Source: Circinaria calcarea | Taxonomy: Eukaryota | DNA: 33,870 nt | Reading direction: 5' to 3' | NCBI GenBank assembly: GCA_051942165.1 | Contig: JAVECS010000035.1 | Span: forward strand, 1 to 33,870 | Shown here: one piece after another, positions 1 through 27,390 of the stretch | How positions within the stretch are numbered: the first letter of the stretch is position 1 | Layout of the letters: each line of letters starts with the position of its first letter | Translations under genes and position numbers: made by a program | The notes under the pieces: generated by a model | Database searches by the model: none | Seen by the model: the letters and a program-made list of their open reading frames with translations, nothing else | What the model was told of the DNA's origin: nothing

Positions 1-358
1 AAGTAATGGAAGTGGGGGGGGGCGGGGGCTGACTCGGTGGCGCGTTGGGTGGAGCACGTTGTGGGCTTACTGGGGAAGGCTTTGCCTTGTGGATGAGGAC
101 TCTGCTTGAAGGAGGTGACTGCGGGCTACCAAAGGTCCCCAGTGAGCCGAATGAGCCAGATAACCTCCTCGCAAAGCTGTTCCGTCTATTGTGGCTATTA
201 TGGGCTGTTGCAGACGACTTGCTTGAAGCTGTCGACTGAGACCATCGGTTGAGGTTTCCAATTCCCTCCGTTATTCCACTGATGCTACTGGGTCTGTCAT
301 GAGCCGTAGCCGCCTTCCGCCTGGCATCAAATGGGTGCCCCGACGTGGACGAAACCAT
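1..358 (-). CDS. 5' part of a Ser/Pro-rich fungal protein (possibly the Pezizomycotina MIT-domain protein family); gene continues beyond the left edge
   Basis: Open minus frame from ATG at 358 to the window edge: MVSSTSGHPFDARRKAATAHDRPSSISGITEGIGNLNRWSQSTASSKSS...PPSQPPPPP. It has no stop inside the window, so it is absent from the ORF track. The GNLNRWSQST motif is recalled from fungal MIT-domain proteins, but the domain itself is not visible. A possible upstream intron (391-528) makes the true start uncertain. Confidence 0.55.
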   Translation of the reverse strand, partial: MVSSTSGHPFDARRKAATAHDRPSSISGITEGIGNLNRWSQSTASSKSSATAHNSHNRRNSFARRLSGSFGSLGTFGSPQSPPSSRVLIHKAKPSPVSPQRAPPNAPPSQPPPPPTSIT

Positions 359-2854
359 TGCGCTAGGGCTCGTGGACCGTACTGCCGAACCTGTCAGTTT
401 AGCACCATCCGTTGGCGACGGCGGCGCAACATGGTGTACTGTTGCGGTAGAGGAGCTGACTATTGCTTTCTTCTTAGAAGGCTGACGCTGGTAAAAGCTT
501 GGCATGGCCAAAATCGAAGTCATTTTACCTGGAGGTGCGCCGTGCGCGCCTCGTGGTTGTGGTTCCCGAGATTTGAGTTTGGGCCATGCGAGTGGTGGAT
601 AGCCGGATCAAACCCCAATGTTCGACTGATGATATAGATGGTGCGAGGACAGTAATCGATCACTTCCCGAGTATGCTTCTGGGTCAAGGGAACAAAGACT
701 CAACTGCCTGCCGAGGCGTTCTCCGCAAGACTGTGAGTTCCGAAAGCTTGAAGAAGCGAACAAGGGATATGCGCCGGTATATGGACGTCCGGGGGCCTGG
801 GGAGTCGAGGATTTTGTATAGAGTTGTTGAAGTGTGTGTGGTCAAGGGGGCTCGATTTTGCGAAAACGGACTGGCGCCAAGGGCTCGCGAGTCGGCGGAG
901 GATAGCAACCTGGCTGCGAGGTGGTAGGGCAGTGTGCTGGGTGGATTGGGCCGAAGATGTCGAAGAAGAAGATGGAGGACTCGAGGTTCTGCGGTGACCT
1001 ATGAAGGCTCGTTGGCTTGGCCAATCTCTGAGGCGAACGGTATTGCACCGCGCACGTTCTTCGAGTCTATTCTCCAGGACCAAGTGGCATCTCCTACTCC
1101 GTACCTGGTCGCAGACTCCGGGCCCGAGCTTATGTTTTGATGGACGTTGGTTTCTAGCCTCGTCGACTTGAAAACGACCGCGCCATTACGTGCACTGCAA
1201 GTACCGTGATGGACCGGTAAGGAGGTCTGCGATTGGTGCTTCCAGATAGATTACCATACCCGAGCTCCTAGCCTTAGTCTCCCCTGTACTTTCTCTTCCA
1301 GGAGAAGAATCCGAGTGCGCCTCCTAACCCATATGCCCGGGCCCATGGGCTTTGGCCCTCAGCTGCGGAGACTATCTATACTTATGATACTACATGGTAC
1401 CGGGGATGGTGTGCGTGCGTGCCCGTATGCGACATAAAGGGCGTGATGGGAGTGTTTTCTTGTATTGGCACGCTTATAGCGGAGAGATTAGCTGTACGTA
1501 ACTAACCAGCCGGTTGGAGGGGGATCCGGACAGGGCTGACTCGAGGACGCGGCCGAAGCTCATAGATGTCTTCACTTCATCTCGGGGAATAGGAAAGTTG
1601 AATCCATCCATCCATCCGATTTTGAAACTCCCGCTGGCGGTCCACCTCAAGCAAATCGACCGGAAATGGGGGACAAAGTAAAAGTGTCAGTCAGCCTTAC
1701 CATACTCCTGCACTCGGGGAAGTAAATTACCGTACCAACGACTAGCGTTCCTGTGTATCCAACACCGCTGTATATCATGGGCAGACGTCCTTCTCAAGGA
1801 GTCATCTGTGCCACGAGAGTGGCCACGTCTTCCGTGCTCATGAAAGCCACGTCAGGACCAAAGATTCCTTTCCATGGCTAACTCCGTGGCATCGGATCCC
1901 ATCATACCTCCTGAACTCACACCCACCAGCCCACGGACGTGTTTGTGCGAGTCTACTAAGAAGTCGACGCTATAAACTTGCAGGCGTTGTACTTGCTGTT
2001 ACATTGGAGGTAATGGCCAGGATACCACGGCCGCGTAGGAATGTTAAGTCACAGTACGGTACTTTTACTTATTGTACCACCGCCGCATCCGACGGGTGCA
2101 AGCAATCAGACAAACACTACTTTCGACGGAATCTCATACGAACGGGTTGCTCTCTGTAAACTAGCTGGAGAAAGGACGCGTCACTGGTGACGGTGATGGT
2201 ACACGTCCCGAGACACACACTTTTACTGTAAATAATGGTGTTCATGGTCAGTACAGAGAAAGTTGATTCCATCTTACACATCTCATCCATCGCAGTTTAG
2301 AGGCCGCGATAACCTTAGCAAGGAACAAGCAACCTTGGATGTTTCTAGCCTTTAGATTCACTCAAGTCACATACCAATCTGTGACCATCTCGAATGTTTA
2401 CTGTACAGTGCTGCAATCATATGCAACGCAAGCCATTACCCTAGCTAGAATATCATCCCCAACCATGACGAAGCCTACAAAACCAACGTCAGCGCAATAC
2501 CGAAACAAGGAACTTCTTGAAACCCGAGTTCAATCAACGTGTCTCGAGTCTCATCCTCATCTGTGTAGCAGAATGGACAACGGAGGAAGCCCCTTGCACA
2601 GAGGGTAGAAACATACGCAGTGGTTGAACACCACAGTTGCTTTACGATCGCATCTAGTATCAATCTCTTGGTCAGGCAACCCCTTCGCATATGCTTTACT
2701 TGAAGACACCTTTGCCGCGATCGATCGGATCTCCCCTCCCAATGCAGTACAACAATTCCGCTCTCTGTGGCATACCCTCCCAATCGGCCAAGGCCAGCTG
2801 AGAGCCTGTCGGAGCGATGTGAGGTACATCCCCAGTAGGCACTGGCGGATTTTG

Positions 2855-5677
2855 CTACCCATGAGGCTTCGGCGGGCTGGCAGATGCGCCAGCAGAGTTT
2901 TCGTCCACACACGGAGCAACTCTGCTTGAGGGGAGCATCCTCCTCTTCTGGTGGCGAATCTCACGATTAGCTCCAAGGACATCTAAACCAGAGCAACCTC
3001 CAGCAAGGTCCTCTTTGGAAGCTGACAAATGGTCGAGCCCACGAGCTTTCCTCTTCGATCCAGGGATGTTCTGCGAACTGAGCCGGATACTCAAGTCTCT
3101 CGACTGAAGGAGTTCATCAGGTTGATAACCACTGACGCTTGTCTTACCATGTCGCTGAGAGGTACTCTGACTTTCTGTGCGGAGGCTTGAGTGTTTTCTT
3201 ACATGAATTTCGTCTGATATTGGCTTATCACTTTGCCCAAATGATCCCCTAAATGGATCCCCATGATCCACAGCATATCCTGGTAGCAAGCCACGGCTCT
3301 GTCCGAATGCAATGTGCCTAGGTTGAGATACAGCGTCGGATGTGGATTTAAAGCTTCGATCTGTAGGTTTACGCTGTTCTCTATATCGGCGCCCCTCCCA
3401 TACCGAAGATGGACTGGCTCTCTGTTCAAAGGCTTCGTACTCGGATTCAGATTTATCGAAAGACTTGCGCTGTACTCCAGGATTCTTTGCTCGTCCACCA
3501 GGGTGGTTTGCCTGGGGTTCAGATGTTCCCTTGCGGGGAATTCCCGTGCTTTCATATGGAGGTCCGGTGCTCAGATCTTCCAACCGTTGGAGATCGGGGT
3601 TAGTGGGAAAGTCGAGGCCAATCTGACGAGGTGACACACAGGAGCAACCTTCATTGCTACAATGACGATACAGGCCGTTTTCGAGAAAGACCTCCGAGCG
3701 CTTTGACATGAATGCTATCCCTTCAGAGATGTTAGGACCCGTGTTATAGCCCTGGCAATAGGCGAAAGGAAATGTGATGATCATCTCATTCTGATACTGC
3801 ACGACTTCGGCGTGAAGGACACGGCATGCAGTAAGTGTTTTCTTTGGCAAATAAAGCGCTTCATGTCTCAAGAACTGGTCGCATTGCGGTGGAAGCAGCG
3901 GTAACTTGCAATCCGGTGTAAGGGAGAGCTTATCTACAGTCAGATAGTGTATGGCCTCTTCGAGTTGCTTGTGGTCCCTTGGCTTGATAACTGTCCACAC
4001 TTTCGGAGCTCCCTGCATCATGTCAGTCGCTGGCGGCTGCCATTACAAGGAGCTACTACTCCTACTTTGTGCAGATAGTTTACTGAATATGCGGCAAGCT
4101 CTTTGGTGTGCATAACAAATGCATTGACTCCATGGTGGGTTATTGCCATCGATGTGGAGCGAAAATTGTCAAGCTTCGAGAAAAAACCCGTCGGTCGTTT
4201 CCCAAGGAGATCGTTCAAGTGAGGATCATTGCACGCAAGAGCATGGCGTAAAGCGACATTGCCTAGGTAAGTCAGCACACGTTACTGAAACCATCTGGTT
4301 CCGGGTACTTCACATTTGACATTCATAGTAAACAGTGAATTTCCTGCCCCTCGCAACAATTGCTTGATCATCTGGCTTTCCGTAACTGTGGTTTCAAATC
4401 GAGTTTCCTTCCACGCATCAGGTAAATGTCTCGCATCCAAGCTCCACTTGGTCTTCAGGCTTGTACGGTGTTGCTCAATAGCCTCAGGGCTAACTCTAAC
4501 CTCCGCAGCCGGAAGGACTTGCAGCTTATACAGAGAGACCTCCTTCGACTCGATCTTGGCAGCACTCAACCTTAGCTTGCTTGTGGGTAGCAAGGTTTGG
4601 TTCATACCAGGTAGGTCAACGGATAAGACAGGAAGCACCGCTGTTTCAGGGACAATGACCTTGACAACCCCGTTGTCACGACCGGAGATCTCTTCGACGA
4701 CTGCGAGAAAATTCGAGAATTCCTCAAAGACCTCCTTGGTAGGGCTGAAAACGTCAATGCCAGCATCTTTGGTGATGTTATAACCAGATGGAAGGTCCAT
4801 GAGTGGATGGTAACCTGGTTGCTGTGAAAGCGACCAGGCCTCTGCCTTATGGGAATAGCCTTGTGTGTCGATGAGGCTCAGCACCCGGTCTGTGGTTGGG
4901 TACAAGTTAGCTAGTGTTGATCAGAGCTTCAGGGATGTTGCTGAATTCCCAAAGAGTGCCAAAAAATGTCTTATGCACCGCATAGAAGCTGTTTAAGTGT
5001 CTTGACTTACCCTTCTGCTTATGCCATTCTTCCCACTGCAGTGGTCCTTGAGCCAGCAATTTCATTACAGGAAGTCCTCTTGGCGAACTACCCGCGATAT
5101 CGGGATGCTTTGGTGTGATTGACAAACGTCCAGGGATTTGCTTCTTAGAAGGCCTAGTAAGTTGAATCCCATGAGGACTGTAGCTCAAGTCACGATTGGG
5201 GGTTGATGGCCCCTCGACGCCATCGCTTATTGTTGACTGACTACTCCCTTCATACTGACTACCTTCATCACCATTGCCTGCTTCATCAGGTAAAGGTGCT
5301 GCGCTACCGTCCGCCAGCAAGGCCACGTCCAAACTCTGTCGAGGTAAGGGTTCTTTATTTGCTGCAAGGGCGGTTACTACTTTCAACGTTCTCCGAGTAA
5401 CGTGGATGCGGGAGTCTTTTAGGATGTCTAATGGTCCCAGTTGCGTTGAGCTCCCGTTGAGAGCTGCAACTTCCTTTGCCAAGCCACTGAGGCGTGTTGT
5501 TTGAGGTTTGTTAGGAGTTATTTCATTTAAATGTGAAGGCGTTAAGCCATTGGGACGTTTTGCAGACTCATGTTGAGGTTCGGTTTCCCCTAATATCCTC
5601 GCCGCAATACGATGATTCTGCAAAGCCGGAATTGGTGACGTTGTGACCATCTGTGGATTAAGTGTCTCTTGCTGCAT
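2855..5677 (-). CDS. KDM4/Rph1-like JmjN + JmjC domain protein, about 865 aa, with degenerate Fe(II)-binding triad
   Basis: Exons 5677-5011, 4889-4314, 4262-4066 and 4012-2855 join in frame (2598 nt). Introns are 4890-5010, 4263-4313 (weak GTGAAG donor) and 4013-4065. JmjN: IDVFSPTKEVFEEFSNFL...GVVKVIVPE. JmjC: FVMHTKELAAYSVNYLHKGAPKVW...CDQFLRHE...EMIITFPFAYCQGYNTGPNISEGIAF, which aligns with KDM4 [22 protein letters not shown]...CEAFLRHK...[26 protein letters not shown]. Start codon uncertain. Confidence 0.85.
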
Positions 5678-5987
5678 TTCAAAACGTGGAGTCTCAACAT
5701 ATTCGTATTGCTGGCTCTCCCTGTCAGTAGCACTATTGCTCTGTTAGCAGCTTGCGACAGAGTTTCCAAGTCATGCGATTTAACACACAGAGTACCATTT
5801 TGAGGCTCGCCATGCACCAAACTCTCCATTCGGTCTTGTGGAGCACTATGAAGAGCGTCAACGAAAGGGCCCGGTCGAGATCAAGGCAGCCATATCTGTA
5901 CTTGAACGCTAGAGTTGACTGCATCGCCGACATTTGACTCAAAGTTGTATAAACGTACCCAACAAACCGTTTTACTTCAAAAACTCG

Positions 5988-6469
5988 ACGCGTTTTGCTA
6001 TACTCACAGTATCCACGAGAATAGCAAAGTAGCAAGAGCAAGGATCCTAGAGGTTGCCGAATTGTTTATGCTCGGGTGAGTGTTTCTACGAAGGTCAGCT
6101 GTAAAAGGACCCTTTCTGTTTGAGCTTTCTAGTGAGAGACCTCTTTATGCTCTGGGCCCTATACCTGAAGAGAGTAACGCTTTCGAGTATATCAGCACAC
6201 CTTTCAGCCAAACCCTGCCACTTCTGCGTGTACTCAAGCAAAAAGAGCAAGCAACCCGAGCAACTGGACTCTCGGGCTGTACTGTTGTGTTGTTTACGCG
6301 CGTCTCGCAACCTTAAGCACGCGAAGCGAAGTGTGCATCGACCCCTTAGGGCTGGTAGGGCAAAAGGGGGCCGGCCTTTTAAAAGCACCGAGCTATGCTA
6401 ACCTGTGTCAGGTTCGCATCAATGACCATCTGACCTTAGCTCTCTCCCGGTCACTGCGGAATCTCGCGT
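5988..6469. promoter_or_regulatory. Cluster of MCB-like ACGCG cores upstream of the JmjC gene
   Basis: ACGCGT at 5988-5993, ACGCGCGT at 6296-6303, CACGCGAA at 6318-6325 and TCGCGT at 6464-6469. Sequence match only. Confidence 0.3.
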
Positions 6470-7141
6470 TGGATTTTTTGTGGGGGTTGTACGTAAGGTC
6501 CCGTGGGAAGTCGATGGAAGAGTTCGTGGGACGAGTTTTAGACAGGGGTAGAAAATACGAGATAGTGATGAATTTGTGTCAACGTTCTGGGACGCTATGA
6601 AGTAGTAACAAAGTACTTGCGAGATTCTGCTGGCGTCCGGGATATGGTTTTGAGAGCGTGATCACTCGTCGGACATACGGAGGAGTGGGTACATTGTATA
6701 CGCATCGCTCTGATGGCATCAGGGTTGATCAAGGGGATTGACGAGTGATGAATCGATGGAACAACAGTTTGAATGGTGTACATGTCTGTTTGTCTGGTTG
6801 CTTTGGCTACGTTGCAACTCCTGTTACTCTAGTTACGAGATGCTTTCGGAGCACTACTGTGGTAGAAGGAACGAATTGTACATCTGAAGGACCTTAAAGA
6901 TTCCGCGGAATATTGACATGTCGCATCACAGCATCCCAGGATGATTTGGTAAACTCCACTTGGCCTTGTAGCGGAATGGGTGTGAAACGCTTAAGGGAGA
7001 CGAGAGATTCGATAGATGCCCTAGCTAGCGTATTTTCTGGTTAAATCTCCACAATCATGACGTGGCATAAAGTACAAATCGTTTCTCATCAAGAAATCAA
7101 GTCCTAGCTCCCGGACTCTCCGTATCAACCTCACATGCTCC

Positions 7142-10100
7142 TTATTCATCCTCCGGGCAATTCGAGAACAGGCTATTGGGCATTCCAGAACTATACTCGA
7201 CGTTCCGTTCGACCTTTGTCATCTCCTTTTCTGATCTCAGACTGAAGGCTCCATTGGATGTCTTTACAAGCTTTTTGCTTGTGCATTCCTGGAAGATATC
7301 GACGTCTATCGTCTTTAGCGCTAAGAATCGATACAAGTACACCGGCCTGATCTGTCCGAAGCGACGAGCTCGTCCAACGCACTGGGTATTCCAAGCATCG
7401 TATTCACTCTGGTTTTGCGCCAGGAGCGGCGATACGAATACGACATGATTAGCATTTGTAAGATTGCTGTGAGTACAAGACGTTAGTACTATATTCTATA
7501 GCAGTAGAGTGAGACATTACTTACGCCCCAGCAGATGACTCATTCGAGCAGTTCAAAAGCAGCACTTTCCGCTTCTTCGAGGTTTTATCTTCTTGGAAGC
7601 CATCCATCATGTCAGCGGCTTTGTTATTGGGTAGATTTTCCCGAATCGCATAGTGTGAGACTCCATTTTCTTGAAATGCTTTCGCAATTTTCTCCATAAG
7701 ATCATCAAACTGTACAAAGAGTAAAGCCTGCTCATCGGACGGTATATCTTTCTTGATCAGACTAACAATATCATCGATCTTTTTACCATGGTGAGATCTA
7801 ATATGAACATCACCATCACCAGGGCCGAGATCAGTAGACTTGAACGTATGATATTCCATCATAGGAGCGTCGCAACCAATTACCGGGCACTGTGTACGAA
7901 GAACTGCCATGCCACGACATCGCTTACAGATGGCATGCCCACAGTGAACAAGGATCAAGGCATCGTTAGCATCGTCGACTTCGTGTCCACAATCGAGGCG
8001 GACTCCACCTTGCCTATGGTTCTGGAAAGACGCCTTTTGAATGAAGCGAAGTGCTCTCTTCTTGTAAACGTATTCGCCGACTAGAGCATGTAGACCTGCA
8101 ACCATGTCGCGCAGTGCAGAAACTGTTACCTCGTTCCACGCAACTTCGGTGGACGCGTCCCGACCTGCATCCATAATCATGGTATTGAGGATAGTTCTAA
8201 CCTCTTCATCCCCGCAGCTACCATTCTTTATATTATGAGACCAACGATCATAATGTTTATCTTTTTCCTTAAGGTGCTTTTTAAACGCGGCAGCCTTAGA
8301 CAGCTCGGTTTTAAGTTTACAATGTGTCTCACTGAGTTGATCTCGACGGGTCTCCTCGATGGTCTTGCAATCAACACTAATGCTCTTTGAATAGTCGTTG
8401 ATACCTATAGAGCATCGCTTCAACAATGCTTCCTCGGCTGTTTTGCTTGAATCCAGAAGCTCATCAAGACGCTGGCTCCGATCATTTCCACCTCCTGACC
8501 GATGCTTTTTTGGAATCCTCATGCCATGTGAGCAAAGCTTCATATGTAACTCCAGATAGGCTACATAATCTGCAGCTGGCAAGGCTAGCCCCATTAGGTT
8601 CTCCCGCATCGGGATCGCATCGATCTCGGCAGTATTCTGACTTTAATTAACACATGCATTATCAAATGGTGTTGGAGATATACATACCTGCCTGACAAAG
8701 TGATCAAGGAACTCCTGGGCAAGCGTATGCCGTTGTTCATGCCAGACCGGGGAAAAGACTTGATTATAGGATTGAAACTGCTCAGCCGCTAGAGACTATT
8801 AGCGTAAGATCACCACGCAGGAGATAAGAGCACATACCGGTTCTATCTTTTTGAATAGCCTTGATATTTCGGTTGCTTAAATAACCCCTAGTAGCATCGT
8901 CCATACCTAGATTGATCCGCAAGAAGCCCGCAAGGATTTTAACATCCGCAAAATCGCCTAGAGTAGGTGTCCCGGACAGCACCCAACGTGACACGGCCAT
9001 TAACGACGTAATGGAGGCAGCATCTTTGCTAGTCACGTAGGTGAACTCATCTAACACCACGCGATTGAAGAAATAAACCTCAAAGGGTAAACCCCGTATG
9101 TCTTTTGCGCACTTAGCTTGCCGGAATCCGAAAAGATCTCTGTCATCCTGTGGAGGCTCGCCAGTTAAAGTCTTTGCCAACGTCGGCTTTTCACCAACTT
9201 TGCGCTTGGTGCCGCATTTTAGCTTCGAGTCCGGGCAATTAGTTAAGATCGAGCTTGTGCTAGCTTGCTTGCCCTCGTTTGCTGTCACATATCTCTTGCC
9301 TCTTAGCCGCTTCGACGGGGCTTGAAAGGGTAGGCGATCATCATCCTCTGTCAGATAAAGTCTTTGTTTGAGAGTCTGCGCAAAGTCTCTTGGAAAAGGT
9401 AAGGTTTGAAGCTCCTCCATATGCTTTGCAGCATTATCGACTGCGGTGGTCAACCAAGCTGCAAAAGCTCGACCTTGCAAGGACGATGGAGCTTCGGGCA
9501 AGGCAGAAAACTGAGAAAGTCTCCGAAGATAACTTTCACCGGTGAGGATCGTCCATGGGGCGATAATTACGTCTGCGCCCTCAAAGTCCGAGATCGTGAG
9601 ATGTATGAGCTGTGCAATGGTCTTTACCACTAGGATGTTGTAGTCGCTACCAAGGAACTTCTTCGCTTGCTTCTGCCATTGAGGTATCAGCGTTGTTGGA
9701 ACGAGGATGAGCGTTCCCTTCAGCGGAACTCTTCCAGCAAGGCCATGTACTGGAAGGGTCTTTCTAGCCTTAGTATTTTCCTTCCATTCATTTCTAGGTA
9801 GAGATCCTTCAAGTCCTGTTTCAGCCGCACGCTTTTGAAAGTCTATTAAAGCCAGCGTAATGATCGTTTTCCCGTAGCCGACCTCATCGGCAAGTACACC
9901 GCCTCGAACATAATGTGCTCTCCGTACCCGGGCTTCTGCTCGCCAACCCAAAGACGTCAAGCATGCCTCCTGGACCTCTTGTTCATAGAATGGCGGAGCA
10001 TGCTCATCTTCTTGGGCTATCATCCAAGACAGTGAACGCTCTTGCTCAGGGCGGAGTGAAAATGGAGTACCGTCATCATACTTCCCAAGAAATGCATGAG

Positions 10101-13100
10101 GTCTATGGCGATCTGCTTTGTTATTCGACAAACCGAATTCCGGTAGTGGATTCGGTGCTTGAAGGACGTGTTTAGTATTCAGACGCCAGGATACCTCAGT
10201 ATCCGTGTGGGATATGAGCGCTGGGAAGCATCCTAGCGCCCGATGAATCAGGGTCGGAATGTTGAGCGCAACAATAAGGTGACAGACGTTGGAGTTGTCG
10301 ACTTGAACTTGTGCCACGAAAGGCGAAGGTCTCGCTTTGACGGCACACTCGTATGGTCCAGCCTGCTGTGGATCTTCATAAGGGATTTGCTTAACTGTAT
10401 TACCTGCTTCTTCGCGCCTCCATCTGATGTCCGGTCGATTGGGAGCACACATCTGACATTGAATATGCCTGGATGGCAATGACACTGACCTCCACCGGTC
10501 CGAGAAGCCACCAAGATCCTTGATTCTCTCCATAAGCCAAGAGAAAGATGCAAATCTCTGTGCTTCGTTTGCTTGGTCGACAAGCACCCAGCCTTTTGTA
10601 GGCCACCCAATGTTCTCACCCTCTTCTAATGATACTTTGCATGATAGAATTGCTGTGAATGCATTTTGACATTGGGAGTCTACTTGAACTGCTTCATTTG
10701 GCTCCTGCATATCAGCAATCCCGGAGCTAATGGTTAAGGAGATGTCATCGGTGGGTACCGCGTATGTAGCTTCCTTCCCTACGACGATTCCTAGCATTGC
10801 ATCGCACCTTGTCCATTGCTCATGTACGACGCATTCCACTTCTTGTCTATTAGAATGACCAGACGGTCGCCACATTAGCCTATCCTTAATATAATTAGCA
10901 TCTCGCTCACAGGGCTTATGAAGCGGACCAACGCTCGCGTTGATATGGCGAACTTCTCCGTTGACCAAGCGGCGTATGTCAGAGGTGAAGACGAAAGCAT
11001 CTTTGGAAGGATTACCGATCTGGTCTGGATCCAACATGAGATACAAGTCCTTCGTTGAACCGTTGGAAGCTCTTCGATGTAAACTGCCGCAGGCAGTACC
11101 ACACTCTGGCAAGAGCGTGTAGTCACCGATAATATCGACATTGTATTGCTCGGAAATAGCATGCACATAACTAAAACGTAACTCCGACCATACCATCTCA
11201 TCTTTATAGTCCACTAAACCAAGCCGTGACTTCCAAGAAGGGACTAAGTGCCCTTTCCCTTCGACAGCAAGCAGAAAAGTCAAGCTCGTAGGAATCCGAA
11301 TGTTCCATATACCCGCAAGGATATTGCTCTTCTCCATCGACATCCGAGCAACGGGCTGTTTTAGTAACTGTCGGGTCTTGCTTTCAAAGGGTTCAGATTC
11401 TTTTGCTTTAACGTACCAAAACCATTGAGGCTTGTCTCCCTTGAATACAAGTTCTAGTCGCGAATGAAGCGATTCGTACTTGATAGTCCAAACTTCAGCG
11501 CGCTGAATCGAATGGAAGCGAAGCTCTTCTCCAAATGCAGGAGAGATGGCTTCAGAAAATACCTTCCAGTCGGATTTACTAATTGTGTCCTGATATAGGG
11601 CTTTTGCTGTCCTGAAAGAATCAGCTGTTAGACCTTGCAGTCGCATTCTCATTGGTAGAGCTTTCTTGATCCTATCGGAGAACATATGAGGTGGAATCCG
11701 AGACTTGACTGTGCTTTTTTCAGTCTCGACGTATTCGTGAAATGGACTGCCATGGCATCTTTCACAACTAGAATGTGAACACGCCTTGCAGACGAAGAGA
11801 CGCCTCGAGGTCACTGTAAGCTGCCCTTCGCAACGGCAGTGACGAGCACTTCTCTTAGCGTACGACTGAAGGTCGCTCACAATAGTATCGTTATGACTAC
11901 CAAAGTCAATAGGCCGCTCTTTCAGATGCTTCGCGTCGACCTCTTGCAAGCGAGGAAGTGAAGGTGGAATGACTGTCGATAGAGTCTCGTTCCGCTTCGG
12001 CAAGGCTTGATGACCGACAAGAAGCGCACTTAGAATAGCAGCTCCCACAACAGTAGAGGACATGGCGTTTCCAGCCAAATCCTGGAGCTCCCGCTGAGTC
12101 TCACAGGTAAGGTGTAGCTTGTCTATGGAAATCCCTTGCAGCATCAATGATTCAGCACCTACGATCGGTCCACCGCGAGTGGTGAGATACGGTTGTCCCA
12201 TTGGGGTTAGGCATGGGGTTATGCCAAATGCTGCCGAATCAACAAAGCGGTCAATGTTCTGCGATAGATCCAGGACGCGGCTAATACTATAAATCAGTAC
12301 GCTCTACCAGTTCTTGGAAAGGAAGCTCTTACGTTTTGTGTTCATGGTCGTATCCTCGATGGGCATTGCGTAAATAGGCCATGTCGAGTGTGTCCTTGAC
12401 CCGGTCCACCTGAATTACTGCCCATTCATGGTTTCCAAAGTCGACCATTCGAGACGGCCCATTCTCCTGCCATGCAGTTACGGGCCTACGATCCCCAAGC
12501 CGATTCGAGCTCCGGTAGTAGAGATGACGCTGTTGACATTTAATCCAGTTAACCTCTCTAATCAACTTCTCGTCTCCCGTTAGACTCTTGGTCAACTCCT
12601 GTATTGCAAGAAGAAGCCTGGGATCGTCCGGACCAAAAAGGAAACTGGTAACTGGAGAAGTAGCCGGTCTCTCTAAATCTTTCATCTTGGCTGCCCACTT
12701 CTTTACTGCCTCTCCAGTGGAGAAGCCTGCGGTATTACGCCGTTCGATGCAGATAACGTAACCCCGTTGTCGAGTGTGAGGAATGTAGTATTGCTTTGTA
12801 TCTACTTTAACCCATAAAGCCGAATATCCAATGTGCTCCCACATCTGTACAATTCTGCTCCATGGCGCAGTAAGGACATTTTCCAGAATTACCAACGGAG
12901 TACGGTATTTATCGGCATATTTGATGATTGCTCCGAGAGTATCGCTGGATTCACCGATCTCGTCCAGAGACTTCCCCGCATTATTCAACCTTGAAAAGTC
13001 CACACATGAGAATCCTGCGATGAGCATGTCAACATCACCTGGAACGGCGACTGGTGCCCCGTATGCCGTATCACTATTTAAGGTAGATTAGAAGTTGGTA

Positions 13101-14047
13101 GAAGTAGCGAACTTGAAGTTCGGGAGGACTCACGCTCGATCTTTCCCGTAAAGCTGCCGAATGTCTCTGAATAAGATTGGCGGGTGAAAGTTTCGCTCAA
13201 TGTAAGCTTGTTTGAACGCAACTATCTCAGCGCTGAAGACATGATCGATCTTGAATTGGACTTGATGATTGGCCTCAAGAACTGTGTTGTTTCAGTTTAA
13301 GAAGAATTGAATAGCTCACCTGCACTTACTGGCACAAAATTCATTTAGAAAGAGTATCGGGGCTTCCGTGCCTGAACACATGGTTGCTACTCTGAGCTTA
13401 CGGTTCCCTAAAGCTTTTAATACATCCTCGAAGCCAGCATCAAGGGCTTTCTGGGTCATGTCGGCAAATATCTGTGAAATGTCATGCAGTGGTGTTTCAT
13501 CAAGCCTGATTCCCAATTTGTATACCCAGTTGTCAAGGGATTTGACAGGAGGTTTGGCCGTTGGGCATTGCGACTCTTCAACATCGGTAATCGGCGAATA
13601 ACTGCCTGGCGTTAAGGGACCGGTTCTGCGACGTTTTGCTGTAGGCTTAACGGTAATGTCTTCATCACTAGATTGGTCTTCGGAGTCTGAAGAGGTGATG
13701 AAGTGGTCATGGTCGACGCTAGGAGTGGTAGAGTTCAACTGAGAATAATCGTCAAGAGCATCATCTCCAGCGGTAGACGAGTGGCTCAATCCTTGGTGAC
13801 GCCGGGTTTTGGAAATTCTTTCCGACTTGCCTGAGGGCCCTTTCTGGATTTGCTTACCTGCTGGTGCACGGGGAGACCTCTTTGGTTGAGAAGGATCGAG
13901 ATTTGCAGTGTCTTTTACCGAATTTCCCAGACATTTGGAGACTCGGCTCCTTTCACCTCCATAGGAAATTGGCGCCGACGGACGAGGAATTGGTGGCCTC
14001 AGTGCTTTGGGCGGAGCTTTGGCTCTTGCCCTCTTAGAAGGGGCCAT
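7142..14047 (-). CDS. DNMT5: DNMT5-family DNA (cytosine-5)-methyltransferase fused to SNF2 ATPase, RING finger and helicase C-terminal domain, about 2195 aa
   Basis: Seven exons (14047-13330, 13281-13134, 13073-12333, 12280-8838, 8788-8688, 8636-7525, 7466-7142) with GT-AG introns of 48-60 nt join in frame (6588 nt). MTase motifs: I VATMCSGTE, II FSAEI, IV IAGFSCVDFS, VI ILENV, VIII YYIPHTRQRGY, X LAGNAMS. SNF2 motifs: Walker A GGVLADEVGYGKT, Ia TLILVP, Walker B VVLDEFTY, III WVLSGTP. RING-like: CGH...CGHAICKRC...CPVIGC. Helicase C: LLFVQF, SAGANLTNANHVVF, QCVGRARRFGQ. Confidence 0.93.
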
Positions 14048-16710: not shown

Positions 16711-17381
16711 TAGCTACATCCCAATCACAAATGGGTGGAAACGGGCAATAACTGTCTGTATCAGCATAAAGGATCACACGATCATGAGAACACTTACTTT
16801 GCGTATCAGCATGACCAGCTGGAGCACGTCTATTCTTCTTTGCTCATATGTAAAAGACCGTTGATGTTGTTGGGGCAGCCTGCTATCCGGCAGAAACTAT
16901 AACAACCATGATAACCATAGGTAGTGTACGTAAGCTCTGTCGAATCGAGGCAGGTTTCGACGTGCAATCCGCTTATTATTCGATCTTGACATCGAGGATA
17001 TTATCTAGGTGTAGATAACCTACTACTCGACTGTCTCTATGTCTCACGGATCCCTTGAATAATTGAAGCTTGTGATAATCAAGTACTGATGATCCCCACC
17101 ACCTAATAAACATTCCATCTTTGCCGTGGTGAAGTTAACATCGAACTGTCCTTTGATAGTGTTGTAAATATACTTGATTACTGTTGACGCTCATCCTTGA
17201 CCACTCCTGTGAGGTTGAATACGTTAAGCTACGAACTATTCCATACCCTGCAGCGTGCAGGTTGCCGCCATAACAAGGGAGTGCAATTTTGCAAGAGCAG
17301 GACTTTAGCAAGATCTCTCCCAAGCATGAAGCATTGAGGAAAACAAGACATCGCAGAAACATCCCATGCGCTCTTGCGGGA

Positions 17382-18430
17382 ATGGCTACTGCGACCGAAA
17401 ATGCGTTTGCAGATCTCTCCGGCATATCTGTTATGAACACACCAAACCCTTACGATGCGTTAATAGAAGCCAGTGAGAATGATTCGGTGACTCTCCTATC
17501 GATTTGTGCTGTCTACGCTCCTGACCCCTGTCAGATACAAATTCAAGCTCGATACGAGGCCCATCGGAAGGCACGAAATGGTCAGCAAAAAGATCAGCTA
17601 CTATCACCAGGCTTTACTGGGATGGTTCTTGACCCTGTCCTGCAGAAGCTACTTCATCCTGAGCAGCACCCAGGCTATTCCGACCAAAGACATAACTTGG
17701 TCTTCTGGGCACGGCCTAGTGGCAACTTACGGGACTTAATTCACATCGTCCAGCAGAAACTATTGACTGCAGTTCCAAGTCGGTATCTCCGTTCTAGAAA
17801 GACGAACAGCACTAAACACGGCCAGATCTCTGGCTAATGCCGATTGACTGTCTGCATATGACTGTACTTGAGATCACGCATTCCGTGACCGAAGCAGAAG
17901 TGCAGAAGCATGTAGATAGCTTGCAATTAAAAGTCCAGACCATTGCGGACTATACGTTCACTCATCGCTCCAGGCTCATCAAACCAATGGTAGGATATGA
18001 TGCTTCAGCCATGGCGCTCAGTCTTGTACCTGCTGCTGGTGAAGGGCAGTCTTCTTTCGATGACTCGTATACATACCATCACCTTCGGCGCGACCTCTAT
18101 GCCCTCTGCAAAGATGCCGGTGCCACTATTGCATCCCGGTACACAGTGCCATCTGCGCATCTTACCATTGCCCGCTATGTGACGCAGGAGGACTTTTCCA
18201 TCAGAGACAGTACCAGCTCTGTTCCCGACAGGAAGAAGATGGAGCAATGGGTAAACGTTCTCGAAGAAGTCAATTCATGGTTAGAGGAGAACTACTGGCC
18301 AAAGGAAGCAGGGATGATTCCGGAGGGAGGCGAATGGATTGTGGGCCAGACAAAGGGCCTGGACTTTAGAAAGGGGGTATGTTGGTATGGGGGCGGAGAG
18401 ACGGTAGCGTTGGGGAGAGGCTCCGAGTGA
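17382..18430 (+). CDS. 2H-phosphoesterase (LigT-like RNA ligase/cyclic nucleotide phosphodiesterase family) protein
   Basis: Exons 17382-17486, 17535-17778 and 17826-18430, with introns 17487-17534 and 17779-17825. Two HxT motifs (CLHMTVLE, SAHLTIAR) plus fungal-family segments NPYDALI, LVFWARP and C-terminal WYGGG. Confidence 0.85.
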
Positions 18431-20190: not shown

Positions 20191-20599
20191 CCACCTATGG
20201 TGAAGCAGCCGGGACTGTTTGCCCGGGACGCAGAACATCATACTCGTATTCGTGTTGAAGTAAACTGTTACTCTGGGCCAGAAAGCAACCGATGTTCGAG
20301 ACGCATACTCGCTCTCAACATTGCCCACTTTCTGCCTACAAGATGTGTAATTTTGACCCCTTTTTGGCCTCCCGGCGGCCCGACAACGTGTCCGAGGCGC
20401 TAGAGCTACCATTTGGGTTTACGGAGACTACCGTAAGTCTGTCACCCTTGAAGCCACCGTATCTTCAACTCTAATCGAGCAAACCACGTCGTTCACGATG
20501 TCTTTTAAAGTCCATTGACCGTAGCCGCTCATTCGAAATAGTGACTGTGCCGTTTGGAACAACCGGCGAACTTGATCTTGCCCCGTCTTGGGCCACACA

Positions 20600-21885
20600 A
20601 TGATCTGCTTCTCTACTTTTCTCCTACTCTACTTCCTGCCCTTGATACTCTGCACCGAAGACTTCTACAAGCTCCTCAATATCGATAAATCCGCATCGGA
20701 GCGTGATATCAAGAAAGCTTATCGCACCTTGAGCAAGAAATATCATCCAGATAAGAATCCGTATGTATACCATTCACCAGTGTACACCTTCCGCATTTTG
20801 ACCCCCAGGCTGGTAGGGGGGACGAATCTGCCCATCAAACATTCGTCGAGATCGCCGAAGCGTATGAAGCCCTTTCGGATAGTGAGACTCGCCGCATCTA
20901 TGACCAATACGGCCATGAGGGTGTAAACCAACACAAGCAGCGAGGCTCAGCGCCACAGCATAACCCCTTTGATCTTTTCTCGCGCTTCTTCGGGGGGGAT
21001 GGACACTTTGGGCATGGCGGAGGTCAACGGCGAGGGCCAGACATGGAAGTCAAGATTCACATTCCGTTGAGAGACTTCTACAATGGCAGGGAGCATGACT
21101 TTTCGATTGAGAAGCAGCAGATTTGTGAAGAGTGCGAAGGTACCGGAAGCGCAGATGGCCATGTGGACACTTGCTCACAGTGCGCTGGGAGGGGTATGGT
21201 AATTCAAAAGCACATGCTTGCTCCGGGGATATTCCAACAGGTCCAGATGCAATGTGATCGATGTGGTGGCAAAGGGAAGACGGTCACCAAGCCATGCAAG
21301 GTATGTGGTGGCAGCCGGGTTGTACGAAAGTCTTCCAGTCATAAATTATTTGTGGAAAAGGGTATGCCTAAGGGTGCAAGGATAGTATATGAGAACGAGG
21401 CCGATGAAAGCCCTGACTGGGTTGCAGGGGATTTAGTGGTGACCTTAATGGAGCAGGAACCCAGGTTGGGCCAAAATGACGAAGAGCGCGTAGACGGAAC
21501 ATTCTTCAGGCGAAAAGGCAGGGAGATGTTTTGGAATGAAGTACTGAGCCTCCGAGAAGCCTGGATGGGCGACTGGTCCAGGAATTTAACTCACCTCGAT
21601 GGACACGTTGTCAGGTTGTCGAGAATGAGAGGGGAGACTGTCCAGCCTAATGCAGTCGAGGTCCTCAAGGGCGAAGGCATGCCTGTTTGGATCCAGGAGC
21701 ATGGGCAAAGCGACGATGACTTTGGATCGTTGCATGTCGAATACACGGTGGTGCTGCCGGATCAAATGGAGAAGCCAATGGAGAAAGAATTCTGGGCAAT
21801 ATGGGAGAAGTATCGGAGAAGGACGGGGATAGATCTTCACAAGGATAGCGGCAGACCAGATCATGCCGGACATGATGAATTGTAA
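20600..21885 (+). CDS. SCJ1: ER-lumenal class I DnaJ/Hsp40 co-chaperone (Scj1/Spj1)
   Basis: Signal peptide [19 protein letters not shown]-domain with HPD (KYHPDKNP), intron 20761-20816, G/F-rich region, four CxxCxGxG-type zinc repeats, DnaJ C-terminal domain and terminal HDEL ER-retention signal. Confidence 0.96.
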
Positions 21886-27279: not shown

Positions 27280-27390
27280 AACCTCGTGGCGCAGTGGTTA
27301 GCGCGCCGTTCTTATATCAAATCTTCTGGAATTGATATGGTAATATCCTAGGTGATGCGGATGTCGCGAGTTCGAATCTCGCCGGGGTTA
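27280..27390 (+). tRNA. tRNA-Ile(UAU) with an intron of about 38 nt (27317-27354)
   Basis: Acceptor stem AACCTCG/CGGGGTT, discriminator A, D-arm GCGC-AGTGGTTA-GCGC, anticodon TAT at 27313-27315, intron after position 37 and T-arm GCGAG-TTCGAAT-CTCGC. The intron (GATATG) can pair back onto the anticodon region, and a T-tract follows the gene. Confidence 0.92.

Follow-up and report, generated by a model that had tools for sequence, protein, structure and literature searches.

The window, a 33,870-nucleotide stretch of Circinaria calcarea DNA (contig JAVECS010000035.1), carries an intact gene for the DNA methyltransferase DNMT5 followed on the same strand by a gene for a KDM4-like JmjN-JmjC protein, and this adjacency recurs in other ascomycete genomes. 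We give roughly even chances that DNMT5 and this distinct KDM4-like paralogue constitute an old two-gene neighborhood kept for a joint role in heterochromatin and 5mC. The JmjC protein is best read as a chromatin factor linked to DNMT5 that began as an enzyme and is now a scaffold, most likely one that limits silencing.

The two genes of the window

The DNMT5 gene occupies positions 7142 to 14047 of the minus strand and was modeled, from the spliced frame, Pfam matches, and the alignment with Cryptococcus neoformans DNMT5 (PDB 7R76), as seven exons (14047-13330, 13281-13134, 13073-12333, 12280-8838, 8788-8688, 8636-7525, and 7466-7142) with six introns of 48 to 60 nt, all GT-AG; the spliced translation gave 2,195 amino acids with zero internal stops. 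Pfam scanning of this protein revealed DNA_methylase, SNF2, RING, and Helicase_C pieces, and the layout is a low-complexity N-terminus, the methyltransferase, the SNF2 lobes, and the RING, that is, a C5 methyltransferase fused to a RING and an SNF2 ATPase. The G-Y-G-K-T of the SNF2 ATPase (9865 to 9879, minus strand), placed by the translation and the Pfam SNF2-rel_dom match, is what we take to be Walker A, with D-E near 9051 taken as Walker B. Across the methyltransferase exon, the protein matched 7R76 with an E value of 8e-56, and the S-C catalytic dipeptide, ENV, and R-x-R of the two enzymes were aligned. The S-C dipeptide, which replaces P-C in the DNMT5 family and is S439-C440 of the Cryptococcus enzyme in the available text of 10.1101/2021.10.01.462825, is present in the window DNMT5, where the codon of the catalytic C312, as computed from the seven-exon model, lies at 13004 to 13006 (minus strand).

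The initial annotation had described an intact DNMT5 without a recognizable chromodomain, and both points held, since the frame is open through 7 exons with the expected Pfam domains and the first exon gave zero Pfam matches, chromodomain included. A DNMT5-JmjC fusion gene was considered and rejected: no JmjC Pfam match was found among the DNMT5 homologues listed, to which length limits apply, and the stop and C-terminus of the window DNMT5 are normal. The Circinaria genome also contains genes that, by motif and domain layout, we take to be DIM-2-like and RID-like.

The KDM4-like gene (deposited model P0001, 904 amino acids) lies at 2855 to 5829 of the minus strand, with exons 5829-5789 (uncertain), 5732-5011, 4889-4314, 4262-4066, and 4012-2855; the deposited model begins exon 4889-4314 21 nt earlier. 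The spliced frame is open to a stop at 2855, in agreement with the intact, same-strand JmjN-JmjC gene annotated initially. The JmjN domain (4654 to 4752, minus strand) was a weak Pfam match (E 0.0024, below the curated cut-off) that precedes the JmjC and also aligns with the JmjN of KDM4D, and the JmjC itself was matched above the cut-off. The best solved-structure matches of P0001 were KDM4D/A/C and Rph1 (E about 1e-15), and all 56 of 56 such matches were KDM4, Rph1, KDM5, or plant KDM5-like chains.

The JmjC core is encoded by two exons (3620 to 4262, minus strand) and combines a retained KDM4-type zinc site with a degenerate methyl-lysine pocket. Compared with KDM4D, H-T-E is changed to H-T-K (4102 to 4110, minus strand), in which the first iron ligand is kept as H505 and the second, Glu, is K507, and Y-H-A-G is changed to Y-C-Q-G, in which the alignment places C605 (3755 to 3757, minus strand) at the third ligand, His. 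Two of the three iron ligands are thus gone, as had been claimed initially, the protein having H-x-K...C instead of H-x-E...H. The positions of KDM4A Tyr177, Lys241, and Asn290 are occupied by Ala, Glu, and Ala, and that of Tyr175 by Ser. The zinc cluster (Cys, His, and two Cys) is kept; in KDM4 enzymes, the Cys and His lie in the strand 4-5 insert and the two Cys past strand 8 (excerpts of PMC2938197). Structure prediction for P0001 gave a mean pLDDT of 39, too low for use, and an ESM Atlas search with the protein returned generic JmjC clusters and no match for its N-terminus. Run X1, about 90% alike, contains a contig that extends from 3822 to 7019, but no contig was counted as bridging into DNMT5.

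The intergenic spacer from the DNMT5 stop to the deposited JmjC start covers 5830 to 7141 (1.31 kb). The short same-strand gap annotated initially stands, with a revised length: the earlier figure of 1.46 kb was based on an ATG at 5677, and the deposited start at 5829, in a short first exon followed by an uncertain first intron, gives 1.31 kb. The JmjC start is probably further 5′ than 5677, since orthologues align upstream of that position. No sequence is common to this spacer and those of four further taxa, nor does any 8-mer occur in four of the five. ACGCG boxes are slightly more frequent than expected in the spacer of the window (6 against 2.0; p 0.024 for one region among six tested) but are not enriched in the other four taxa; a common promoter motif for the pair was rejected.

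The linked JmjC group and its catalytic site

In trees built without Epe1 and DMM-1 sequences, the linked JmjC formed its own orthologue group apart from canonical KDM4/Rph1 (SH-aLRT 78/UFBoot 93). The canonical KDM4 of the Circinaria genome is located elsewhere, on contig C952, and the divergent paralogues of the same genome (L003-L006) have an intact triad and fall outside the linked group. The iron triad H-x-E...H was intact in 28 of 28 members outside one clade and in 0 of 44 inside it, the named members of the latter being core Lecanoromycetes; support for a single dead clade was weak (FastTree 0.40; 88/69 in a second tree). Every iron and 2-oxoglutarate ligand is kept in the intact members, whose residue corresponding to KDM4A Asn290 is Gly or Ala (28/28); they have no fixed residue at the Lys241 position and retain the Tyr of the Tyr177 position; Lys241 and Asn290 orient the methyl-lysine in KDM4A, according to the accessible portion of PMC8162366. 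In the dead clade, 11 different residues, never Tyr, occupy the Tyr177 position, the Tyr175 and Asn290 positions are also free, and the zinc site is maintained (Cys in 44/44, His in 43/44).

The dead JmjC is still under purifying selection, with dN/dS values of 0.19 for dead members, 0.10 for intact members, and 0.18 for a helicase control, and its rate of evolution is roughly threefold that of the intact form (root-to-tip 1.57 versus 0.53). Scanning 10 other members revealed a short repeated N-terminal motif in 7, including three dead ones, and the window protein has it in degenerate form; Pfam detected no PHD, Tudor, or C2H2 module in 7 members. A pseudogene reading was rejected on the open spliced frame and the dN/dS of about 0.19 in relatives (dS between the window and the loci being saturated), and a recent private loss of ligands was rejected because Schaereria carries K and C at these very positions and no member of the clade has an intact triad. 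The group represents a KDM4 subfamily that is apparently undescribed, has an unusual pocket, and includes a large clade of pseudo-enzymes.

Linkage of DNMT5 and JmjC across fungi

In all eight named genomes in which both genes were located, the window included, DNMT5 and the JmjC gene are 1–3 gene numbers apart, and these genomes span five classes, from Pezizomycetes to Lecanoromycetes. The pairs are Pycnora (locus tags 4574/4575), Candelina mexicana (291/292), Pleopsidium (4632/4631), Sarea (951/950), Candelaria (1/3), Xylona (KZF20056/59), and Peziza (KAI5807571/69), with one or two gene numbers intervening in Candelaria, Peziza, and Xylona. Linkage here means neighboring locus tags or accessions on scaffolds of equal size, strand not included, and eight named genomes with the JmjC in which DNMT5 was not located lie outside the count. 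In addition, P0233 and P0369 come from contigs of one and the same length, 30,068 nt. Strand was given by the metagenome loci: the pair was in tandem on the same strand in 7/7 loci with 10 kb upstream, representing four taxa, two with a dead JmjC, and the gap reached about 5 kb in one taxon.

Since the adjacency recurs in other genomes, it exceeds chance, which favors the linked two-gene unit of the initial annotation over chance adjacency, and the synteny survey found the linkage well beyond close relatives. Shallow cases weigh little because ordinary neighbors (F-box, DHX29-like, and GCN1 genes) are also in kept order across two or three taxa of the dead clade. The gene downstream of the pair varies among three groups, and no relationship was detectable between the downstream F-box genes of taxon A and those of taxa B/C/E. 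The pair contains an intact JmjC in Peziza, Xylona, Sarea, Candelariales, and Pleopsidium; thus, catalytic loss came later than linkage. About 20 named ascomycetes with DNMT5 had no named JmjC orthologue among the matches, so DNMT5 probably works without this JmjC in many lineages. Cladonia grayi, for its part, has no DNMT5 according to PMC9676040. Our literature searches found no paper describing the pair.

Possible roles of the pair and comparison with known systems

We reasoned that the ancestral JmjC would have been an oxygenase whose substrate, a methylated component of chromatin, differed from the classic H3K9me3/H3K36me3, and that it would also have had a non-catalytic, protein-binding role, which the lichen form would keep. 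In the clade with core Lecanoromycetes as its named members, the active site and pocket have degenerated, and the fold core and zinc site persist under purifying selection. The likeliest form of the retained role, although this step is the weakest and somewhat doubtful in itself, would be to limit where DNMT5-maintained CG methylation and heterochromatin persist, as Epe1 and DMM-1, without detected demethylase activity, are said to act. The protein may be a boundary factor, and it may be a scaffold. The fullest version, which we regard as rather doubtful, is a dedicated DNMT5 partner module dating back to the origin of the filamentous ascomycetes. Its JmjC member would have been an oxygenase derived from KDM4, with a remodeled pocket and a non-classical methylated substrate, possibly DNMT5 itself or another heterochromatin protein. 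Inherited as part of a two-gene unit, it would have become, in the ancestor of the core lichen fungi, a JARID2-like non-catalytic subunit setting where maintenance CpG methylation persists.

The pair could instead be a passive relic of ancestral gene order in slowly rearranging genomes, both genes being constrained and the JmjC having a job unrelated to DNMT5. The three ordinary neighbors kept within the dead clade, the tolerated insertions between the two genes, the spacers without a common cis-element, and the apparent persistence of DNMT5 without the JmjC in many lineages all favor such a relic, as does the available text of PMC12543289, which describes the Dnmt5 locus as "mostly conserved" with a mid-table retention value (orthogroup mean neighbor retention 0.129, S18 row). 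The same published mean, a kingdom-wide average, is also counted in favor of a kept pair. However, the pair survived five deep splits, including that of Pezizomycetes from the rest, across which far fewer syntenic pairs remain than within Pezizales (excerpts of PMC3778014), and the opposite flank differs from group to group, whereas the DNMT5-JmjC side is constant. Five retentions would have a probability of about 4e-5 at 0.13 per split and about 0.03 at 0.5, these rates being assumed and not taken from the present genomes. We consider a mere relic possible but unlikely.

Two further readings assign the JmjC a positive function. The protein could bind DNMT5 and recruit or activate it, and in intact lineages may also modify it, much as JARID2, a dead JmjC protein, serves PRC2; the linkage, the persistence of the fold and short N-terminal motifs after catalytic death, and the lack of a chromodomain in ascomycete DNMT5s are in line with this, and DNMT5 adaptors outside Cryptococcus are unknown according to the accessible part of a 2026 review (PMC13297926). 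Many DNMT5-bearing ascomycetes nevertheless appear to be without the partner, and a threefold rate in dead forms is much for a fixed interface, making such a cofactor distinctly improbable. Complex prediction for the Pleopsidium DNMT5 methyltransferase region and JmjN-JmjC core, run without alignments, scored 0.00, a value that speaks neither for nor against a contact. The initial annotation had suggested the dead JmjC as a trans-acting reader that recruits DNMT5; on this view its pocket would recognize H3K9me3 and make up for the chromodomain that DNMT5 lacks, and the KDM4-type fold with its zinc site and a DNMT5 lacking that domain would speak for it. Our scan detected a chromodomain in 0/10 ascomycete DNMT5s and 0/1 mushroom DNMT5, and in the chytrid control, and among the 120 DNMT5 homologues listed only one, from a chytrid, had it; its absence is therefore the ascomycete rule, relatives with an intact JmjC being equally devoid of it. 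The conserved DNMT5 architecture is likewise given without a chromodomain in the available text of PMC9676040, and a Cryptococcus chromodomain mutant had merely a minor effect (10.1101/149385). Moreover, the pair with an intact JmjC predates catalytic loss, and the methyl-lysine pocket was lost with the iron ligands, being unconserved in the dead clade and reading Ala, Ser, Ala (Tyr177, Tyr175, Asn290) in the window. The reader proposal was not borne out, and we regard it as very improbable.

How DNMT5 is targeted or restrained outside Cryptococcus is described as an open question in the text available for PMC13297926. The deep linkage of two chromatin enzyme genes points to a concrete candidate DNMT5 cofactor, and the dead JmjC retained in one large group of lichen fungi is a candidate for assisting or restraining DNA methylation. 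Pairs with an active-type JmjC (the five lineages named above) versus pairs with a dead one (core Lecanoromycetes) offer a natural experiment. If the linkage is a relic, the KDM4 subfamily and its catalytic death remain, with modest interest.

Cryptococcus DNMT5 is an ATP-dependent maintenance CpG methyltransferase, an activity predicted for the window DNMT5 from its sequence; the two share the S-C methyltransferase, SNF2 ATPase, and RING, but the window protein lacks the N-terminal chromodomain. Known cofactors of the Cryptococcus enzyme are HP1/Swi6 and Uhrf1, and neither "JmjC" nor "jumonji" occurs in the main text of 10.1101/149385. A search of the Circinaria genome for an HP1 chromo-shadow domain gave no match anywhere, a result that carries no information either way. 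With KDM4/JMJD2 proteins (human KDM4A-D, yeast Rph1), the window protein has in common the JmjN plus JmjC and the Cys/His/two-Cys zinc cluster, but it belongs to a separate orthologue group and has lost the iron triad and the Tyr177/Lys241/Asn290 pocket.

Epe1 of S. pombe and DMM-1 of Neurospora restrict the spread of heterochromatin or methylation. They resemble the window protein as fungal JmjC proteins, in a works-like analogy only, and differ from it in that it is KDM4-type by its solved-structure matches; our literature and sequence searches found no linkage of either to a DNMT gene. In the available text of PMC9676040, they have no detected demethylase activity and belong to separate JmjC groups (KDM2/Epe1 and DMM-1). 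The window pair also resembles other systems that connect the function of a JmjC protein with that of a chromatin methyltransferase system, although through other JmjC subfamilies and other partners. Among these, JARID2, with a dead JmjC, is tied to PRC2, and IBM1, with an active one, to CMT3 in plants; to our knowledge, neither involves gene linkage. Finally, the endogenized giant viruses of Amoebidium carry divergent KDM4-like JmjC genes proposed to counter silencing (excerpts of PMC11244446). These, too, are divergent KDM4 paralogues without reader domains, but they are mobile, multi-copy, and JmjC only, whereas the window gene was seen once in the Circinaria genome, encodes a JmjN, and holds a stable chromosomal place.

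Gene content of the window

The window constitutes the whole of contig C35 in an assembly (31.5 Mb, 5,512 contigs) of Circinaria calcarea, a species placed by taxonomy look-up in Lecanoromycetes, Ostropomycetidae. The DNMT5 gene runs on the minus strand from 14047 to 7142 in seven exons with a stop-free translation of 2,195 aa, and its methylase, SNF2, RING and helicase parts were all matched by Pfam. Its methyltransferase exon matched Cryptococcus DNMT5 (7R76) at an E value of 8e-56, with the S-C dipeptide, ENV and R-x-R kept. Downstream on the same strand lies the JmjN-JmjC gene (deposited start 5829, stop 2855, with a putative first intron), whose deposited protein, P0001, was identified by protein search as C. 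calcarea Q9187_000491 (100% match). Compared with KDM4D, H-T-E is changed to H-T-K and Y-H to Y-C. Thus, the initial annotation of an intact DNMT5 in tandem with a JmjC gene altered in its iron ligands stands, except that the gap, given there as 1.46 kb, is 1.31 kb from the deposited start. The spacer (5830-7141) contains ACGCG boxes, presumably MCB-like, some 165, 470 and 640 nt upstream of the JmjC start codon, and these were not conserved in other taxa.

Elsewhere on the plus strand, a spliced gene without a Pfam match (17274-18430) lies 3.2 kb upstream of DNMT5 and divergent from it, and two H-x-T motifs, noted by eye, suggest a 2H-phosphoesterase fold. It is followed by a DnaJ gene (~20550-21885) with central zinc and C-terminal domains (Pfam) and an HDEL end, which we take to be Scj1-like, and by an intron-containing tRNA gene (27280-27390; Rfam RF00005), not called by ARAGORN and read by eye as tRNA-Ile with a UAU anticodon. 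The start of a Ser/Pro-rich gene (1-507, minus strand), truncated by the contig end, had neither a Pfam match nor a counterpart in 19 metagenome loci.

Linkage of DNMT5 and the JmjC gene

The search for DNMT5 homologues (best 120 of 979 matches) was supplemented by accession look-ups. The two genes were close together in 8/8 of the named genomes where both were found, the window included, spanning Lecanoromycetes, Candelariomycetes, Sareomycetes, Xylonomycetes and Pezizomycetes. Outside the window, proximity was read from scaffolds of equal length for the two genes together with near-consecutive locus numbers (Pycnora 4574/4575, Candelina mexicana 291/292, Pleopsidium 4632/4631, Sarea 951/950, Candelaria 1/3) or accession endings (Xylona 056/059, Peziza 571/569), which takes numbering as gene order and counts proximity irrespective of strand. 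The count leaves out Candelina submexicana, Toensbergia, Schaereria, Lecanora, Kalaharituber, Rhizina, Morchella and Geopyxis, where the JmjC gene was present and DNMT5 was not located.

The metagenome scan yielded 19 loci. In all seven with 10 kb upstream of the match, DNMT5 stands in tandem with the JmjC gene, both on one strand, with gaps of ~1 to 5 kb. By DNA identity these represent four taxa, two with an intact JmjC iron triad (H-x-E…H) and two in which it is lost ("dead"). The remaining 12 loci (≤6.1 kb upstream) were uninformative on linkage, and three of them (L040-L042) look non-orthologous. These data showed that the linkage is old, extending beyond close relatives from Pezizomycetes to Lecanoromycetes, and it is probably non-random. 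In one taxon (loci L029 and L032) the spacer measures 4.6-5.3 kb, differs between individuals and lacks a long open frame; it is possibly an unstable insertion.

Paralogy and catalytic loss in the JmjC group

A JmjC-exon query returned 15 proteins, and for a Pleopsidium orthologue query against a 50%-identity library the best 150 of 3,366 matches were taken. From the JmjC searches, 163 proteins were aligned on a 188-column profile; FastTree was run on 146 rows (at least 135 aligned residues for proteins and at least 115 for loci, three rows removed by hand) and IQ-TREE on a 55-row subset. Among the matches listed, the KDM4-like orthologues of the window gene (the linked group) formed a single group of 72 rows (FastTree 0.47; SH-aLRT 78 and UFBoot 93 in the subset), which in the IQ-TREE subset comprised two parts, Pezizomycetes (96/99) and all other members (95/95).

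Among its 15 JmjC matches, the C. calcarea genome has one canonical KDM4-like gene on C952 and one KDM5-like gene on C856, each with a strong JmjN, together with several divergent copies whose triads are intact. Judged by sequence, the window gene is a paralogue distinct from the canonical KDM4. About ten divergent KDM4-like genes or fragments (G000 loci L003-L007 and L010-L014, on C363, C745, C920, C92, C4821, C307 and other contigs) had no JmjN match; those translated in full retain H-x-E…H and the whole set clusters with similar proteins outside both the canonical KDM4 and the linked group, possibly as a mobile or expanded anti-silencing family. The accessible part of PMC9676040 distinguishes six groups of JmjC proteins in Aspergillus and outgroups, none of the linked kind. 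The DNMT5 and JmjC parts each belong to known families; no description of the pair or of the JmjC subfamily was found in the literature covered, which largely excludes subscription journals and bioRxiv supplements.

Among the matches listed, a dead clade of 44 rows (FastTree 0.40; 88/69 in the subset) lay inside the linked group, and the H-E-H triad was found in 0/44 of its rows versus 28/28 in the rest. Its four named members (Circinaria, Schaereria, Toensbergia and Lecanora helva) all fall within the NCBI OSLEUM clade, and the triad is intact in Pleopsidium (Acarosporomycetidae) and in non-lecanoromycete members. KDM4A residue numbers serve as labels. Tyr177, Glu190, Asn198, Lys241, Ser288 and Asn290 follow PMC8162366, which describes Asn290 and Lys241 as orienting methyl-lysine in KDM4A. 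Across the 44 dead rows, Tyr never occupies position 177, positions 175, 288 and 290 vary freely, and the zinc Cys (44/44), zinc His (43/44) and core strands are retained. For the core, three dead pairs gave a pairwise dN/dS of 0.19, against 0.10 in a single intact pair and 0.18 in a neighbouring helicase; these values are rough because dS exceeds 1. The 28 intact rows have Gly (24) or Ala (4) at position 290 and no fixed Lys241, and both residues are fixed or nearly fixed in 25 canonical KDM4-like rows, which were chosen by Ser288 and Asn290, so that their Asn290 figure holds by construction. With these positions altered, it is plausible that intact members act on a substrate other than H3K9me3/H3K36me3. 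The alignments showed that the predicted catalytic death is clade-wide and under constraint, in a separate KDM4-like group with an altered pocket.

A short motif, [RK]-E-L-x-[DP]-[FYH]-N, often doubled, is retained by intact as well as dead members within the disordered N-terminus (P0001 residues 100-106; also the N-termini of P0005, P0010, P0214, P0225 and P0364) and is a candidate binding motif.

Possible roles of the pair

The best reading, to which we give about even credence, is that DNMT5 and the JmjC protein would share a heterochromatin/5mC role and that their neighbourhood would be kept accordingly. Passive retention of gene order is rather unlikely. Taxa A and D have a P450 downstream of the pair, and B, C and E carry F-box and DHX29-like helicase genes there (with GCN1 additionally in B and E), so that this flank changed between groups while the DNMT5-JmjC adjacency did not; inside the dead clade, however, ordinary neighbours also stay in place. 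Neither set was found in the window's 2.8 kb downstream. In the parts available, PMC12543289 places Dnmt5 in "mostly conserved loci" and its S18 gives the DNMT5 orthogroup a neighbour retention of 0.129 (mean) and 0.090 (median; row 2,396 of 4,668), and PMC3778014 reports that Pyronema shares far fewer syntenic pairs with ascomycetes outside Pezizales than with Tuber; neither study supplies a background matched to the genomes compared here.

That the JmjC protein is a positive DNMT5 cofactor is improbable. Some 20 named ascomycetes that have DNMT5, among them Thelocarpon, Peltula, Aspergillus, Pleomassaria and Ascobolus, had no named JmjC orthologue among the matches listed. In the FastTree tree, each of the 13 intact rows from outside Pezizomycetes grouped with genera already named. 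Since the library is clustered and few rows carry names, these data only hint that the partner may have been lost in some lineages and that the partnership is not obligatory. An H3K9me3 reader supplying in trans the chromodomain missing from DNMT5, as initially proposed, is very improbable. The window DNMT5 indeed lacks a recognisable chromodomain, its first exon having no Pfam match, but this absence is general: at E 0.1, Pfam found none in 10/10 ascomycete DNMT5s and one mushroom DNMT5, some of whose models may be missing the N-terminus, and detected one in a chytrid control; among the matches listed, 1/120 and 1/83 homologues had one. Little is left of the proposal because the pocket is degenerate and the JmjC is intact in other linked genomes. 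In Cryptococcus, the available text of 10.1101/149385 reports a minor effect of the chromodomain mutant and a contribution from HP1. PIP-box-like motifs were seen at the N-termini of 4/8 related DNMT5s scanned (P0018, P0110, P0112 and P0117), and none in the window DNMT5.

As regards the shared heterochromatin/5mC role, what we take, by motif and domain layout, to be DIM-2-like and RID-like genes also occur in the C. calcarea genome, and the partner's target could therefore be a broader silencing system. KDM4 enzymes remove silencing marks; Epe1 and DMM-1 serve as boundary factors. By analogy with these proteins, the window JmjC might act as a non-catalytic brake limiting where DNMT5-maintained methylation or heterochromatin persists, a version that by itself we hold as tentative. 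Epe1 and DMM-1 are described, in the part of PMC9676040 available, as acting without detected catalysis.
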